From: an uncultured delta proteobacterium
Lineage (GTDB): Bacteria; Myxococcota_A; Polyangia; Palsa-1104
Direction of reading: 5' to 3'
DNA: 64,000 nucleotides
NCBI GenBank assembly: GCA_963785725.1
Contig: CAWAWS010000007.1
Location: 64,001-128,000 of the forward strand
A model generated the notes under the pieces. That model was not told the DNA's origin. It made no database searches and worked only from the letters and a program-made list of their open reading frames with translations. The number at the start of each line of letters is the position of its first letter. Position 1 is the first letter of the stretch. The position numbers and the translations under genes were made by a program. Positions 50,912 to 64,000 of the stretch are shown piece by piece.

Positions 50912-52447
50912 CTACAGCGACTTCAAGAACGCTTCCAAGTCGCGCTTTTCCTGCGCCGTGAAGCCGATGTCGAAGCGCGTGTCGTAGAAGTCGACCACGT
51001 CGCTGACGCCGGCGGCCGAGCCGTTGTGGAAGTAGGGCGCGCGACCGGCGATGCCGCGCAAGATCGGCCCCTTGAACTTGCCGACGTCCGCCCAGTGGCC
51101 GGTGATGAGCGCGCGGCCCGGGTCGGTCGTCTGCACGGTGACGCCGGTGGTCTTGTTGCGCAAGGTGTAGAGCGGCATGTCGGACGTGCGGCGCGACGCG
51201 TCGGCGATGCCGATGTTGAGCGGCAGCGCGACCGAGTGGTGACCGTAGTTGGGCGAGTCGTGGCAGGTCGTGCAGGTGCCGGCGATGGTCGACTTGCCGA
51301 GCGCGTCGTTCAAGCCGCCGACGCCGGTGATGGCGATGGGCTTGGTGTTGAACAGCGCTTCACCGCGGGCGATGCTGGCGCGCGCCTCGGCTTCGTTGCG
51401 GCTGTCGCAGCCATTGCCGTGCTGGCCGTAGCTCTTGTCGGCGTTGTTCCACGCCTGGTAAATGTCGAACACCGTCGACGAGAAGAGCGCGCCCGTCTTG
51501 GAGTCGCCGGCGAGCACGTCGTTGATGCCGAGATAGAACGTCTGCGTCGCCAGCGCCGCCGGGCCGCCGTTGGCGCCGCCGACGTCGAGGCTGCCGGCAT
51601 TCTCGTCGCTGAGCTGCGCCGTGTGCAAGCTGGTCTCGAAGGCGACGATGGCCGCGCGATCCGCCGTGCTCAACGCCTGCAGCGCCTGCGCGTGCATCAC
51701 CGTCGCGTCGTTGGCCTGCGTGTTCAGGTCGAGCGCGATGGCCTGGCCGGCGACGTTCTCGCGACCGTCCCACATCACCGTCGACAGCGTCGTCGCGCCC
51801 GCGCCCGTGCCCAGGTTCGTCGTCGGCAGCGGGCGGCGAAACAGCGAGAGCTCGGCGGCGCTGGCGTAATGATACGGATCGTCGACCGACTCGAGCGTGA
51901 ACTCCGCCGTCGCCGGGATCGCGAGGCCGATGCGAATGACCGCGCGATCGAGCAGCATGCTGTACGCCTTCAACCGCTTCGCCGTCGTCGACACGTCGGC
52001 GTTGGGCGAGTTGGCGCCGTCGACGAGCCGGAACAGCGGATCTTGCCCGAACTTCTTGTCGTCATGCTCCGCCTTGCACTTATAAGGATCGCGCAAGCAG
52101 TCGAGGTTGTCCGTCTGCAGCGGGTTGGTGAAGCGCAGCTGCACGACCTCGGGCGTAATCGTCCAGCCCGCCGCCGGCACGTGGCAGTGAATGCAGGCGC
52201 GATCGTTGGTCCCGAATGACTTGAAGAACGGGTGCTGGCTCGGCTGCTTCAGCGCCGTCACCGCGCTGCCCTGCGCGATGGTCTCGAGCGTGCCCGAATC
52301 GTCGCGCGACGCGAGGCTCAGGCTCGTCGACGTCGCCGGCACGCTGTTCGTCGCCAAGGCCTCGACGGTGGCGCCTTCATCCGGCGTCCCGACGCAACCG
52401 ACGACCGACAGAGCCAAGCAGACCAGAACCGCGCGACGTGAGCCCAT
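50912..52447 (-). CDS. Di-heme cytochrome c lipoprotein (bCcP/MauG superfamily)
   Basis: GGGAGG RBS, VVGC lipobox, CIHCH and [28 protein letters not shown]...APYFHNGS. Confidence 0.85.
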
Positions 52448-57457: not shown

Positions 57458-60337
57458 ATGTGGACCTCCGTGCGCGCCTCGGTGCTCCTCGCGGTTTTGT
57501 CAGCGGCGGCCTGCGGACCTTCAACGGCCGGCAGCGGTAGCGGCGGCGGCGGCGCTCACGCCGACATGACGGCCGGCACGACGCCCGACCTGTCCGCGCC
57601 CGCCGCCAACGACAGCGGCGTGCCCGCCGACCTGGCGCCGGCGGCCGATCTCTTGCCGCCGCCCGATCTGACGGTGCCGGCCCCGACGGGCCTGACGTGG
57701 CCGCCGGGTCAGGTTTTCCCGACGTTTCCGCCGATCACGGCGCTCGACGTCGTCGATTTGGGGCCGCTGACGGCCGATCAGCAGACGCTGTTCGTGACGC
57801 TGGCGGGCCTCGTCAACCGCACGACGCCGCGCATCTACACGCTCTCGAACGGCGACGGCGAGGGCAAGACCTTCTGGCTCGACAAGATGCCGTACACGAA
57901 GAACAGCATCGCCAATCCCTACACGCTACTCACGAAGTATCAGAGCGAGATCAAAGGCATCATCGTTTACGACGACACGCAGATGGACACGATCAACCTG
58001 GCCACGACGATCGCCGGGCAGACCAACGCCGTCGTCGCGTCGCCGGCGCAGGCGACGCTGTTGACGGCGGCGCCGTACAGCTTGGCGATCCTCGTCGATC
58101 TGCGGACCAACAAGTTCACCACCAAGCTCGCTATTTATCAGTACGAATACGATCTCTATTCGGCGGGCGCGACGCATCGGCTGATCTGCGGGCTGAACCC
58201 GGCGATCGCGGGCAACTTGCGCGACTATGCGGTGGCCACGCAGTCGATGATGGTGTGGCTCGATCCGCGCGTCACGGCCGAGGCGACGCTACTGTCGCAG
58301 TTCTTGGCGCTCTTGCCGCCGACGAGCCCGTATCTCGGCTGGTGGGTCGACGAGCCGACGGGCGTGTCCGCGGCGTCGACGGCGGGCGTGCCCACGTTCG
58401 CGGCCGACTACGCCAGCAACCTGACGGTCATGGGCGGCACGCCGCGCGGCAGCGCCACGGTCCCGCCGGCGCCGGCGCCGCCGCCGCTCGAGAACAAGGT
58501 CTACGTCGCCATCTTCATGAGCGACGGCGACAACGTGCAGGAAGATCAGCACCTCATTCCCATCAAGTGGGGCGACGCCAACCGCGGCAAAGTGCCCATC
58601 GGCTGGACGATCGATCCGGCGCTCGTCGACGTCGCGCCCAACGTCTTGCAGTACTTCCAGTCGACCGCGACGTCGAACGACGTGCTCGTGTCGGGGCCGT
58701 CGGGGCTCGGCTACACCTATCCGGCCGCGTGGACGACGAGCGCCTTCGACACCTACGCGAAGGTGAGCGGGCGCTACATGCAGTCGGCGGGCTTGCGCGT
58801 CATCACCGTGTGGAACAACGGCGTCGACTTGAGCGCGGCCAACATGGCGAGCTATTCCAACGACGTGCCCAACTTGGTCGGCCTGACCATCCAGGACGAG
58901 TCGACGCCGATGCAGATCATCGGCGGCGCGAGCGGCACGGTGCCGCTGTTCAAGCTGAACATTTCGTACGGCGACACCGAGCAGATCCTCGAGAGCAACC
59001 CGGGCGGCATCGACTCGCAGCTGGCGACGTTCAACGGCACGGCGCCGGTGTTCATCGCGGTGCAGGGCGACATGAACTCGAGCAGCATCACGCCGACGGC
59101 GTTCAATGACGTGGCCGCGCATTACGGCAGCAACTCGAACGTCGTGTTCGTGCGGCCCGATCACTTCTTCCAGCTGTTGCTCGAGGCCAATCAACCGCCG
59201 GGCCATCGCGTCTTCACCGGCGACTACGACGGCGACGGCAAGACCGACACGATGTTCTATTACAACGGCGACGGGAACTGGTGGATGGCGCCTTCCGACG
59301 GCATCAACTTCGCGTGGCACGTCGCCGGCAACGTCGCGTCGCTGGGCAACTTCGCCGACAACAACCACGTCTTTTACGGCGGCGACTTCACCGGCGACGG
59401 CAAGAGCGACATCATGGTCTTCGGCGGCAACGACAACAACTGGCGCCTCGGCACGTCCGACGGCACGAATTTGACCTGGAGCGTCGTCAGCAATACCGGC
59501 AACTTCGGCGGCCTGCTCGACGGCGCGCACCGCACGTTCACCGGCGACTTCACCGGCGACGGCAAAGCGGACGCGCTCTTCTATTACAGCGGCGACAATC
59601 ATTGGTGGCTGGGCACCTCGAGCGGCACGGCGTTGACGTGGTCGCTGGTCTGCACGAGCACGTTCGGCAACCTGCTCGACGGCACGCACGGCCTCTACGT
59701 CGGCGACTACAACGGCGACGGCAAGAAGGACCTGCTCGTCTACAACAACAGCGACGGCAGCTGGTGGTTCGGCATCTCCAGCGGCACCGCGATCACGTGG
59801 ACGCAGGCGGCGGCGACGAGCGGCTTCGGCAACGTGCTCGGCAACGACCACAAGATCCTCATCGGCGACTTCGACGGCGACGGCAAAACCGACGTGCTCT
59901 TCTACTTCAACGGCGACGGCAACTGGTGGATGGGCACGTCGAACGGCACGGCGCTGACGTTTCATCAGGCGAGCGCCACCGCCGCCGCCGGCAACTTGCT
60001 CGACTGGAGCTATCGCATGATGGCCGGCGACTACGACGGCGACGGCAAGACCGACGTCGCCTACTACAACAGCGTCGACGGCAGCTTCACCTTCGGCATC
60101 TCCGACGGCAACCAGCTCAACTGGGAGTCGGCGGGCACGGGCGCGGCCACCATCGGCGACCTCGACGACTCGACGACGCGCCTCTTCTTCAGCGGCGACT
60201 TCAACGGCGACGGCAAGATGGACGCGCTGTCCTATTCGTCGACGGATGGCAACTGGCGCGCCGGCCTATCGAACGGCAGCGCGCTCACGTGGCACGTCGC
60301 CGGCAACACGAGCGGCTTCGGCAACCTCATTCATTAG
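57458..60337 (+). CDS. GxGYxYP putative glycoside hydrolase lipoprotein with seven FG-GAP/VCBS repeats
   Basis: AAAC lipobox, MSDGDN, PIGWT, GPSGLGYTYP, and seven GD[FY]xGDGKxD repeats at about 59200-60330. Confidence 0.85.
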   Translation: MWTSVRASVLLAVLSAAACGPSTAGSGSGGGGAHADMTAGTTPDLSAPAANDSGVPADLAPAADLLPPPDLTVPAPTGLTWPPGQVFPTFPPITALDVVDLGPLTADQQTLFVTLAGLVNRTTPRIYTLSNGDGEGKTFWLDKMPYTKNSIANPYTLLTKYQSEIKGIIVYDDTQMDTINLATTIAGQTNAVVASPAQATLLTAAPYSLAILVDLRTNKFTTKLAIYQYEYDLYSAGATHRLICGLNPAIAGNLRDYAVATQSMMVWLDPRVTAEATLLSQFLALLPPTSPYLGWWVDEPTGVSAASTAGVPTFAADYASNLTVMGGTPRGSATVPPAPAPPPLENKVYVAIFMSDGDNVQEDQHLIPIKWGDANRGKVPIGWTIDPALVDVAPNVLQYFQSTATSNDVLVSGPSGLGYTYPAAWTTSAFDTYAKVSGRYMQSAGLRVITVWNNGVDLSAANMASYSNDVPNLVGLTIQDESTPMQIIGGASGTVPLFKLNISYGDTEQILESNPGGIDSQLATFNGTAPVFIAVQGDMNSSSITPTAFNDVAAHYGSNSNVVFVRPDHFFQLLLEANQPPGHRVFTGDYDGDGKTDTMFYYNGDGNWWMAPSDGINFAWHVAGNVASLGNFADNNHVFYGGDFTGDGKSDIMVFGGNDNNWRLGTSDGTNLTWSVVSNTGNFGGLLDGAHRTFTGDFTGDGKADALFYYSGDNHWWLGTSSGTALTWSLVCTSTFGNLLDGTHGLYVGDYNGDGKKDLLVYNNSDGSWWFGISSGTAITWTQAAATSGFGNVLGNDHKILIGDFDGDGKTDVLFYFNGDGNWWMGTSNGTALTFHQASATAAAGNLLDWSYRMMAGDYDGDGKTDVAYYNSVDGSFTFGISDGNQLNWESAGTGAATIGDLDDSTTRLFFSGDFNGDGKMDALSYSSTDGNWRAGLSNGSALTWHVAGNTSGFGNLIH

Positions 60338-61203: not shown

Positions 61204-61961
61204 AGTCGCCGCTCGCGCTCGCCGCGCTGTGCGCGCTGGCCGCCGGCTGCCACGACTTCGACGCGCTGTCGTCGCGCTACGGCAACGATGACTTGGGTCG
61301 CGACCTGGCCGTCGAGCTCGATATGTCACCGTCGGTCGCGCCCGATCTGTCGCCGCCGCGCGATCTCTCGGCCGGCGCCGATCTGTCGCTGCTCGACATG
61401 ACCGCCGTCGGCCATTTGAGCGGCAGCGGCGCCCCGACCGCCAGCGTCGTCGATCTGACCGCCGCCGGCACGCTCGATTGGGCGCATTGGGGCTATCCCA
61501 ACGACGACATGGACCACAAAGCCAGCGCGGCGTCGCTGATTCCCAACTATACGACGCTGAGCGGGCTGGTCGCCTTGGCCTACGCCAACAATCCCGACGG
61601 CTTCAGCTGGAGCGACGGCTTGGTCACGCCGTCGGTGACGAGCACCACGACCGGCATGTACCGCCCCGACGCCGGCGACGGATTTCAGCTGGTCGTGCCG
61701 GCGTCGACGGTGCCGCGCACGCTCGTCGTCTACGTCGGCGGCTATCGCTCGAACGGTAAGCTGACGGCGTCGCTGTCGGATCACTCGGCGCCCGACTACA
61801 GCGACGCCAGCTTCGTCGATCTCGTCGACAACATTTATGCCGCGACCTACACGCTCACGTTCAACGCGGCCAGCGCCGGGCAGACGCTGACCATCACGTG
61901 GTCGGCCAGCACCATCGTCATGGATGGCAACGTCTCGCTGCAAGCCGCCGCCCTGCGCTAA
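61200..61961 (+). CDS. Lipoprotein of unknown function
   Basis: GTG overlapping the TPR gene stop, AAGC lipobox, DL/DM repeat linker, beta-rich domain (VDLTAAGTLDWAHWG). Confidence 0.75.
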   Translation: MKSPLALAALCALAAGCHDFDALSSRYGNDDLGRDLAVELDMSPSVAPDLSPPRDLSAGADLSLLDMTAVGHLSGSGAPTASVVDLTAAGTLDWAHWGYPNDDMDHKASAASLIPNYTTLSGLVALAYANNPDGFSWSDGLVTPSVTSTTTGMYRPDAGDGFQLVVPASTVPRTLVVYVGGYRSNGKLTASLSDHSAPDYSDASFVDLVDNIYAATYTLTFNAASAGQTLTITWSASTIVMDGNVSLQAAALR

Positions 61962-61980
61962 GTAAACGGCTGTTTACTTA
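61959..61980. repeat. 22-bp near-perfect palindrome TAAGTAAACGGCTGTTTACTTA (copy 2)
   Basis: Spans the two convergent stop codons and the 16-bp gap between them. One mismatch versus the copy at 19724. Confidence 0.9.
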
Positions 61981-63366
61981 CGGGTGCGCCGACGCGCGCG
62001 GCGCGCCGAACTTGTCGGTGTTGAGCGCCATCGGCGCGCCGGCGTCGAGGTCGAGGCCTTTGTCGTTGCTGCCGGCCTTGATGTCGACCAGGGCCACCGT
62101 CGGCGTGCTGTTGCGATCGCTCCAGGCCTTCATGCGATATTTGCCGGGCGGCAGGCTGCGGAAGTAGAACGTGCCGCCGGCGCCCGTGACCGCGTAGTGC
62201 GGCGCCGAGACGACGACCAAATAGGCCGACATGCTCGAGTGCAGATTACAGCCGAGCATGATGATGCCCTCTTTGTCGAACTTGACCTCGCGCATGTCGC
62301 CGTTCTTGTAGAGGCCGAGATCGAACGACTTCGACTCCGAGAGCGAGAACACGTTGTGGTAGACGCTGTCGAAGTTGGGGAAGGCGACGGTCGAGCCGAG
62401 GGGCACGGCCATGACGCGAGGCGCGAATTGGCGGTCGCGCTGCTCGAGCACGCGATGTTTGGGCGCGCGCTGCGCGAACTTGCCGCCGACCGGCTCGAGC
62501 ATGACGACGCCGAAGCTGCCGAGCGGCTTGCCGTCGACGCGCAGGACGCCGCGCAAGGAGCCGCGCGCCGGCACCTTCGCGGGCTCATCTTCGTCGGAAT
62601 TGCCGACGGCGGTCTTCGGCTGCGGCGTGTTGCTGGCGGCGTGCGTGAGCTCGCCGGCGACGCGCGGCGGGCTGCCCGAGCGGAACGTCGGCGCCACCGA
62701 CGCGAGCAAGGGCGCGCCCAAGAGCAGCTCGGCGCGGCTGAAGAGCTGCTCGGCGTACGAGCGCTGCCCGCGTCCGCCCGCGGTCACGGCCATGGCCAAG
62801 AGGTCGGCCGCGTCGCCCGGCGGCAGCGTGCGCTGAATCTTCACGACCGCGGCCAGCTGCGCGGCGTCGATGGGCTTGAGCGTGTCCGGCTTGGCGATGA
62901 TCTGCGGCTCGAGCGGACCGAGCGCGCCGAGCAGCTCGTTCTCCTCGCGCGCCGGCACGTGGAACTTGTCGAGCGCGCCCTTCAGGTTCTCGACGACGGC
63001 GTCGAACTCCTCCGCCACCAGCTCCATGCCGACGTGCGACGAGGGCATGTCGCGCCCGCTGTAACCGCCCGGCCCACCCGTCGCCGTGGTGACGAACTCG
63101 ACGAGCATGGCCTCGAGGTGCGCGGCGTCGGTGTTGAAGAAGCGCTGTTTGACGCGCTTGTCGGTCACGTTGCGCACGACGAACTCGTGCACGACGGCGA
63201 CGACGGCGTCGTGGCCGCCGAGCCGCTGGAACAACGGCCGCGAATCGACGGCGGCGGCGGGCGCGGCAGCGGCCGGCGTCGTCGGCGCGGGTGACGTGGC
63301 CGCCGCTTGCGGCGCCGGCGCGTGGGCACAACCGAACAGCAGCAAGCAGAGCGAAAGCTTCCTCAT
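61978..63366 (-). CDS. Lipoprotein: group I truncated globin fused to a cupredoxin-like domain
   Basis: GGAGGG RBS, LFGC lipobox, LFQRLGG...TGGP..YSGRDMPSSH globin, FPNFDSVYHNVFS and GCNLHSSM. Confidence 0.85.
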   Translation of the reverse strand: MRKLSLCLLLFGCAHAPAPQAAATSPAPTTPAAAAPAAAVDSRPLFQRLGGHDAVVAVVHEFVVRNVTDKRVKQRFFNTDAAHLEAMLVEFVTTATGGPGGYSGRDMPSSHVGMELVAEEFDAVVENLKGALDKFHVPAREENELLGALGPLEPQIIAKPDTLKPIDAAQLAAVVKIQRTLPPGDAADLLAMAVTAGGRGQRSYAEQLFSRAELLLGAPLLASVAPTFRSGSPPRVAGELTHAASNTPQPKTAVGNSDEDEPAKVPARGSLRGVLRVDGKPLGSFGVVMLEPVGGKFAQRAPKHRVLEQRDRQFAPRVMAVPLGSTVAFPNFDSVYHNVFSLSESKSFDLGLYKNGDMREVKFDKEGIIMLGCNLHSSMSAYLVVVSAPHYAVTGAGGTFYFRSLPPGKYRMKAWSDRNSTPTVALVDIKAGSNDKGLDLDAGAPMALNTDKFGAPRASAHP

Positions 63367-63460: not shown

Positions 63461-64000
63461 TTATCGCCGGCGCCGCTGCCGTCGCAGCTCGAGCGAAAAT
63501 GCCAGCGCCACCGCGGCCGCCAGCAGCCACAATCCATAGCGCGCGAGGTCGTGCCAGCGCGTCGTCGTCGTCAGCGGCACGGCTTCGAGCGACAGCTCGG
63601 CCAGGCTCAGCTCCGCCGACGACGGCAAGGGCAGCGACAGCGACGACAATTCGCCGCGCCCGCCGCTCGTCACCAAAGGCACGATGCCGTGCGGACCGCG
63701 CAGCCAGGCGCGCAAGACGCGCGACTGCAGCCGCCGCCGCAGCGCCGAGAGGTCGATCTCGTCGGCGATGGCGATGGCGCCGCCGCCGGCGCGGGCGCGA
63801 TAGAGCGGCAACACCGGCGCGCCGGCGTCGATGACGAGCTTGTCGCCGACGATGTCGACGCGCGTCTCGCGGCCGGCAATCGGCGACAGCGCGCGCGCGC
63901 CGGCCGGCAAACGCAACAGCGACGACGTCTTCGGCCCGTCCACCTGGAACAGCTCGACCACTTCGTGCTTGCCCGACGTGAACACCAGCTCGCTCGACGC
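63461..64000 (-). CDS. 3' part of a membrane-anchored hypothetical protein (5' end outside the window)
   Basis: Open frame at the window edge, with a C-terminal TM helix followed by RRQRRRR. Confidence 0.6.
   Translation of the reverse strand, partial: ASSELVFTSGKHEVVELFQVDGPKTSSLLRLPAGARALSPIAGRETRVDIVGDKLVIDAGAPVLPLYRARAGGGAIAIADEIDLSALRRRLQSRVLRAWLRGPHGIVPLVTSGGRGELSSLSLPLPSSAELSLAELSLEAVPLTTTTRWHDLARYGLWLLAAAVALAFSLELRRQRRRR

Follow-up and report, generated by a model that had tools for sequence, protein, structure and literature searches.

A predicted globin-cupredoxin fusion lipoprotein from Polyangia is genomically coupled to a double-Cache receptor gene and is probably a signalling protein

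Heme proteins linked to a kinase or to an enzyme of cyclic di-GMP (c-di-GMP) turnover are known from globin-coupled sensors and from H-NOX and NosP operons; these are cytoplasmic, have other folds and, to our knowledge, include no copper relay. Most truncated hemoglobins have no settled role, and the TrHbN-2 subgroup has a single studied member, the HbN of Shewanella benthica (PMC11904497). Here we describe a gene from an uncultured delta proteobacterium of the Polyangia (Palsa-1104), located in a 64,000-bp stretch of DNA, the window (positions 64,001–128,000 of contig CAWAWS010000007.1, assembly GCA_963785725.1). An initial annotation made from the sequence alone had read this gene as an exported globin-cupredoxin fusion lipoprotein, and a single open reading frame (ORF) of 462 aa was indeed found to carry a lipobox, a truncated globin, a helical spacer and a cupredoxin (Table 1). 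We consider a signalling role of this fusion, taken alone, quite probable.

The fusion gene is tightly coupled to a gene with a double-Cache ectodomain, and this coupling persists through rearrangements and swaps of the output domain: the receptor gene lies upstream, downstream or convergent, its kinase domain is N-terminal, C-terminal or absent, and adjacency holds. The profile that served to recognise the ectodomain drew on other genomes: of the 18 rows intended for it, 8 lacked the anchor motif and were dropped, which left 10 ectodomains for training. In a survey of the gene neighbourhoods of the best 80 of 504 confirmed loci (L035 was counted as split, and L013, in which the contig cuts the gene, was left out), an ectodomain gene adjoined 31 of the 37 fused loci. 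It also adjoined 7 of the 8 globin-free loci of the spacer type (a globin gene is present in the locus in 2 of these 8). The counts are partly circular because many of the loci supplied the profile. In the genome studied here the profile matched four of 7754 heuristically called genes, 108 of the genes being kinase-like. Three of the four are the kinases adjoining the three spacer-cupredoxin genes; the fourth, on contig C20, is kinase-free. When 121 genomes of the class were searched in full, 23 ectodomain matches came up in 15 of them. Among the matches listed, a fusion or cupredoxin match lies no more than 300 bp from 20 of the 23 (143 weaker fusion/cupredoxin matches lie beyond those listed, which bears on two of the remaining three). 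In the other direction, an ectodomain lies next to 20 of the 23 strongest fusion/cupredoxin matches (E ≤ 1e-73); of the 10 fused ones among these, 7 have it.

The same pairing was found with the globin absent or encoded separately. Among 34 cupredoxin-only loci (L051–L084), 20 adjoin a gene matched by an ectodomain profile (10 of these are training rows), with a His kinase, a cyclase or a Ser/Thr kinase as output. Related ectodomains are joined to His kinases or a cyclase in Acidobacteriota and to GGDEF-EAL in Proteobacteria. The proteobacterial comparison covered three annotated plasmid loci out of 54 matching records. In all three, the cupredoxin, annotated as 'methylamine utilization protein', precedes a dCache_3-HAMP-GGDEF-EAL gene, and a protein so annotated has 39% identity to the cupredoxin of the fusion; a group 1 truncated hemoglobin and DUF3034 are present in two of the three, and the third lacks both. 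The cluster in these two loci agrees with the earlier proposal that the fusion is a Rosetta-stone link between globin and cupredoxin genes lying separately beside proteobacterial signalling genes. A role in the methylamine (mau) pathway was rejected on the neighbourhood: no methylamine dehydrogenase genes were found among the recurrent neighbours or in the three annotated loci, the whole genome not having been searched for them.

The suggestion that a co-directional membrane protein at 63461–64000 may belong to the same system is borne out by the adjacency of double-Cache genes to fused and cupredoxin genes across loci, but the identity of this protein had to be corrected. What lies there is the C-terminal end of an ORF that runs past the window edge and encodes a 652-aa Ser/Thr kinase, with two predicted transmembrane (TM) helices around an ectodomain of ~200 aa (L001:7558–8169). 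According to a model built on a 42-sequence alignment (predicted local distance difference test, pLDDT, 91.7), this ectodomain folds as a double Cache. The model matched the double-Cache sensors KinD and LuxQ with E-values of 1e-5 to 5e-4 and modest TM-scores (0.34–0.48), and the LuxQ matches include the LuxP-bound structures 2hj9 and 1zhh. Comparison by hhalign with a 10-sequence acidobacterial dCache_3-type set gave 90%, and the Pfam family dCache_3 was weak (1 of 42 members, E 0.012). A complex prediction with residues 41–459 of the fusion and the ectodomain scored 0.00 in two runs, with controls not folded, and is no evidence either way. A search of longer proteins for the fusion joined to a receptor gave one unrelated match only, which is weak evidence; P0165, in which a cupredoxin is joined to the ectodomain, was rejected because it reads like a frameshifted assembly.

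Membrane proteins with a Cache-like ectodomain and no kinase were observed in this genome (G000 contig C20:238637–239503) and at L009, L015, L018, L019 and L028, in tandem with a kinase copy in four of these five loci. At L007, L026 and L031–L033 the gene beside the fusion encodes the ectodomain and no kinase, and several of these proteins end in a cytoplasmic domain that Pfam does not recognise. Beyond the window, the genes immediately upstream of the kinase on the same strand encode a heme-oxygenase-like iron redox enzyme (PF14518) and a cupin (L001:9708–11101); this pair was not recurrent beside other fusions.

Table 1. Location of the fusion gene, its domains and two neighbouring genes (nucleotide positions refer to the window, residues to the fusion)
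Feature	Position	Strand	Basis or remark
Globin-spacer-cupredoxin fusion lipoprotein (P0001), whole ORF	61978..63366	(-)	462 aa, single uninterrupted frame
Predicted lipoprotein signal, lipobox LFG-C13	63328..63366	(-)	Motif; Cys conservation; low pLDDT over first 30 residues
Pro/Ala-rich tether	Residues 14-44, after lipoprotein signal	(-)	Sequence
2/2 group N truncated globin	62896..63234, residues 45-157	(-)	Pfam, HbN alignment, Foldseek
Proximal His111 (F8), predicted heme ligand	63034..63036	(-)	Kept in 121/121
Folded helical spacer	62572..62874, residues 165-265	(-)	AlphaFold2 model, alignment; helices of RGQRSYAEQLFSRAE type conserved
Amicyanin-like cupredoxin, predicted type-1 copper site	62206..62457, residues 304-387	(-)	phmmer, Foldseek, alignment
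CarboxypepD_reg/transthyretin-like strands	62047..62205, residues 388-440	(-)	Pfam E 3e-5, below cut-off; strand pattern
C-terminal DKFG-x2-R motif, conserved	61996..62016, residues 451-457	(-)	K452 and F453 in 121/121
Membrane Ser/Thr kinase, C-terminal part (ectodomain and second TM helix)	63461..64000, continues to L001:9420	(-)	Proposed receptor
Predicted lipoprotein, di-heme (two CxxCH) peroxidase/MauG superfamily	50912..52447	(-)	9.5 kb from fusion; possible accessory partner

We propose that the fusion lipoprotein is the extracytoplasmic input of the neighbouring kinase. Outside the cytoplasm, O2 or another small oxidant would reach the heme of the globin; having caught O2, NO or peroxide, the globin would exchange an electron with the type-1 copper, thereby setting its redox state. 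The cupredoxin module would then present this state to the double-Cache domain of the kinase, which would read it, with the cupredoxin as the constant receptor partner and the globin as an optional input. The constant pair across loci is the cupredoxin and the double-Cache receptor; the globin, the spacer, a barrel-like protein and a di-heme enzyme come and go. This is most simply read as a receptor that would respond to the state of the copper protein, a state that the heme partners would set. Electron transfer from heme to copper within the fusion is plausible. The full relay from heme through copper to the double-Cache receptor, in which we infer heme and copper binding, the ligand, the electron transfer and the receptor contact, we regard as an even call. 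Somewhat more tentatively, the fusion may represent one form of a widespread class of envelope sensors, in which an exported truncated globin and a blue-copper protein would form a relay read by a dedicated double-Cache receptor. In Myxococcota this receptor would feed Ser/Thr kinases, in Acidobacteriota His kinases or cyclases, and in Proteobacteria enzymes of c-di-GMP turnover.

Several observations weigh against this relay. Six of the 37 fused loci had no ectodomain gene in the stretch examined (two are contigs of 3.5 and 5.2 kb), and class-wide 3 of the 10 fused matches were without an adjacent one. The 15 genomes with ectodomain matches are related, being spread over 8 genera with 7 of the genomes in a single genus. 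They may also share loci with the training set, and the profile was itself built from neighbours of fusion/cupredoxin genes. No globin was found near the cupredoxin-only genes in the stretch examined (0/34 loci), and the globin is thus dispensable for much of the family. The globin of the Caballeronia operon keeps Tyr at B10, so an apolar B10 is not universal. Among divergent fusions, some have lost the F8 His (P0126, P0133) or the axial Met of the copper site (P0131, P0133).

That the fusion is a genuine protein and not two genes joined by an assembly error is shown by its homologs. A search of 7994 scored proteins gave 1340 at E ≤ 0.001, and the best 120 of these were all full-length fusions with the globin (89–100% query coverage, 53–87% identity), from Kofleriaceae and Polyangia where a source was named; in addition, a second fused paralog is present on contig C3 of the same genome. 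Three Atlas clusters (121, 117 and 50 members) scored 0.92–0.96 and are mostly from Myxococcota where the phylum is known; NCBIfam contained no family covering P0001. On contig C15 of this genome a split version was found, with the spacer-cupredoxin and a stand-alone globin as divergent genes, each with a lipobox-like signal. In four clusters (P0168, P0134, P0276, P0277) the fusion is of a second type, which lacks the conserved spacer and whose linker is Lys-rich or of low complexity; a metagenome scan for the neighbourhood of this type found nothing. In a quick globin tree, fused, split, second-type and proteobacterial globins fell, alongside other globins, into one 52-row clade (Shimodaira-Hasegawa-like approximate likelihood ratio test, SH-aLRT, 93). 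This tree has few columns, is poorly resolved and includes neither a clade test nor named reference sequences, so independent origins of the globin-cupredoxin fusions are put forward as a suggestion only. Proteins with tandem truncated-globin repeats were also seen (P0135, P0147, P0157 and others; up to 12 repeats in 1882 aa), many of them with Arg aligned at CD1.

The lipoprotein assignment was judged from the lipobox motif, whose Cys13 is present in 119 of 121 aligned sequences, with Gly or Ala before it in 118. The AlphaFold2 model of the fusion, built on an 83-sequence alignment, had a pLDDT of 89.5 and a predicted template modelling score (pTM) of 0.85, the latter suggesting a defined domain arrangement over the whole chain. 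In this model the spacer, which also occurs in globin-free relatives, forms four helices. Covariation analysis (162 sequences, effective number 68) recovered some intra-globin pairs and T93–G100, and inter-domain pairs were not separable from noise. Unlike in globin-coupled sensors, no cytoplasmic output domain was found in the fusion ORF by Pfam. At window 61959–61980 an inverted repeat, perfect over 9 bp and with a loop of 4 bases, covers the stop codons of the fusion and of a convergent gene ending at 61961, and is possibly a terminator shared by the two.

For the globin domain, the reading as a 2/2 group-I truncated globin with a proximal His was corroborated by Pfam (Bac_globin, residues 45–154, E 8e-14) and by Foldseek, in which it matched group 1 truncated hemoglobins (rmsd, root-mean-square deviation, 1.3–1.7 Å), with S. 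benthica HbN on top (rmsd 1.5 Å, 33% identity). Alignment to Mycobacterium tuberculosis HbN, with helix positions that we take to be those of that protein, gave B10 = V63, CD1 = F76, E7 = L84, E10 = M87, E11 = L88, F8 = H111 and G8 = V124, the distal replacements at B10, E7, E10 and E11 being the same as those initially noted. The F8 His, B10 Val, CD1 Phe, E7 Leu and E11 Leu were each found in 121 of 121 close aligned sequences; G8 is Leu in 111 and Val in 10, and E10 is Leu in 91, Met in 18, Phe in 8 and Tyr in 2. Cys at E16 occurs in 78 of these homologs, 70 of which also have an EF-loop Cys; 43 have neither, and the EF-loop Cys never occurs alone. The copy in the window has lost both. The paired Cys residues fit a disulfide of an exported protein.

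The globin of the fusion carries the residue pattern of TrHbN-2 (hydrophobic B10, E7, E11 and G8, with Phe at CD1), and its sequence scores against TrHbN-1 and TrHbN-2 structures are nearly equal. The apolar pocket is no peculiarity of this protein, hydrophobic B10/E7/E11/G8 being the TrHbN-2 consensus (PMC11904497). Leu at E7/E11/G8 has been tied to predicted low O2 affinity (PMC4720485), and a Phe(CD1) variant of S. benthica HbN does form an oxy complex (PMC11904497). Weak O2 binding is thus likelier than none, and judged by its residues the distal pocket likely stays open and binds gases weakly.

The cupredoxin domain matched the blue-copper protein 5fc9 by phmmer (E 4e-4) and amicyanin by Foldseek (E 3e-7); the Pfam match to Copper-bind was weak and below the cut-off (residues 310–380, E 0.12). 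His337, Cys373, His376 and Met379 were each found in all 121 close aligned sequences, so that the full type-1 ligand set proposed earlier stands. The spacing of the C373-x2-H376-x2-M379 loop is that of amicyanin. In amicyanin an exposed His can leave Cu(I), and it is speculation by analogy that the corresponding His of the fusion might serve as a surface switch. A second element, absent from the initial annotation, is a transthyretin-like sandwich recognised by CarboxypepD_reg (residues 385–434, E 3e-5, below its cut-off). In the model, its strands in residues 388–440 are likely completed by those in 269–292, so that the cupredoxin would be an insertion in this sandwich.

A di-heme peroxidase-like gene lies at most three genes away in 16 of the 37 fused loci, and the product of 50912–52447 is the best match of this genome (E 1e-196) to the di-heme family found beside other fused genes, its nearest solved relatives being di-heme enzymes and peroxidases (6e1c, E 2e-7). 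With the query used, the family was found in only 4 of 121 genomes and is therefore regarded as accessory. Two weaker relatives in other genomes lie ~1.4 kb from a cupredoxin match. A recurring cluster in Myxococcota (L053, L056, L058, L068, L076, L083) combines a ~390-aa protein with no assignment and a porin-like gene with the cupredoxin; in four of the loci it follows a membrane Ser/Thr kinase with an ectodomain that neither of the two profiles accepts. On contig C34 (L004:6169–7002), a more distant cupredoxin-CarboxypepD protein precedes genes that are heme A synthase-, heme O synthase- and SCO-like by sequence, and no Cache neighbour was found at this locus. The window also encodes a 959-aa exported-looking protein (57458–60337, plus strand) in which FG-GAP repeats accompany putative glycoside hydrolase domains of the GxGYxYP type.

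The constancy of the cupredoxin, which is paired with receptors even where there is no globin, would also fit a sensor of cofactor loading. In such a sensor the extracytoplasmic protein would take up copper (and heme), the receptor would tell its loaded from its empty form, and the signal would be the availability of copper or heme instead of a gas or oxidant. However, sensing copper needs no fused globin with an invariant distal pocket, and a His-Cys-His-Met site is typical of electron-transfer copper. In favour of this reading, the signal peptide of the fusion contains no twin-arginine motif, so that heme would have to load after export; porin-like or DUF3034 genes are frequent neighbours, and the best NCBIfam matches of the di-heme neighbour include MbnH-family models, far below the cut-off. 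Against these points, no copper transporter or chaperone cluster stood out among the recurrent neighbours, and we consider loading unlikely to be the signal.

Improbable to a similar degree is that the fusion is an enzyme or electron carrier detoxifying NO or peroxide, with copper re-reducing the heme and the receptor only regulating the fusion or sensing its product without contact. The same ectodomain stands next to the gene whether it is encoded upstream, downstream or convergently, and it does so with different output domains; a protein partner accounts for this better than regulation does. The frequent di-heme peroxidase-like neighbour and the fused copies with no adjacent receptor do speak for such an enzyme, but the pocket lacks the network of Tyr/Gln hydrogen bonds that is associated with high O2 affinity and with use as an enzyme. 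Very improbable is the ligation proposed in the initial annotation, in which Met(E10) binds the iron to give a six-coordinate, cytochrome-like His/Met heme for electron transfer to copper: Met is found at E10 in the fusion (Met87) and in three stand-alone lipoprotein globins next to split genes, and in Chlamydomonas THB1 a Met engineered at E10 does bind the ferrous iron (work cited by PMC11904497), but Leu far outnumbers Met at E10 among the close homologs, with no conserved distal Met to mark a six-coordinate electron-transfer globin, and S. benthica HbN with its native Met(E10) is five-coordinate-like in the ferrous form, with no Met-bound ferrous spectrum (same source).

The fusion ties a TrHbN-2-like globin to a predicted copper centre and to a specific receptor, so that the role of the globin can be put to a direct test on a single soluble protein and a single ectodomain. 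A copper relay read by the double-Cache receptor, in which the globin heme acts on the copper, would if true explain a common, uninterpreted proteobacterial gene cluster and would suggest a stimulus for a branch of the dCache_3 receptors and a defined outside input for a myxobacterial-type Ser/Thr kinase, as well as a function for TrHbN-2 globins and the mis-named 'methylamine utilization proteins'. Literature searches, which miss most subscription papers, found no description of a globin-cupredoxin fusion or of its gene cluster, including the proteobacterial one, and no described mechanism of gas or oxidant sensing by an exported globin through copper. The components are familiar ones; it is their joining in a fusion and in a gene cluster that is new as far as these searches show.

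Compared with TrHbN-2, as represented by S. benthica HbN (PDB 7tt9/8ugz; PMC11904497), the globin of the fusion shares the 2/2 fold, the hydrophobic B10/E7/E11/G8 positions, Met at E10 and, in most of its homologs, Cys at E16. It differs in being a domain of a predicted lipoprotein joined to a cupredoxin and in having Phe at CD1; the main text of that paper mentions no operon, signal peptide or periplasm. The cupredoxin resembles amicyanin and other type-1 cupredoxins in fold and in its His...C-x2-H-x2-M ligand set, but has in addition the transthyretin-like sandwich, the fused globin and the linkage to a receptor. The proteobacterial cluster of DUF3034, globin, 'methylamine utilization protein' and EAL genes holds globin, cupredoxin and dCache_3-type receptor as separate genes; in contrast to the Polyangia locus, its output is c-di-GMP turnover and not Ser/Thr phosphorylation, it has no helical spacer, and the Caballeronia globin keeps Tyr B10. 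Precedent for an accessory protein read by a Cache receptor is found in LuxP-LuxQ: the ectodomain beside the fusion matches LuxQ, and the proposed logic, a periplasmic partner read by a double-Cache receptor, would be the same. Here, however, the partner would be a predicted metalloprotein instead of a solute-binding protein, brought into a postulated contact with a receptor whose output is a Ser/Thr kinase.
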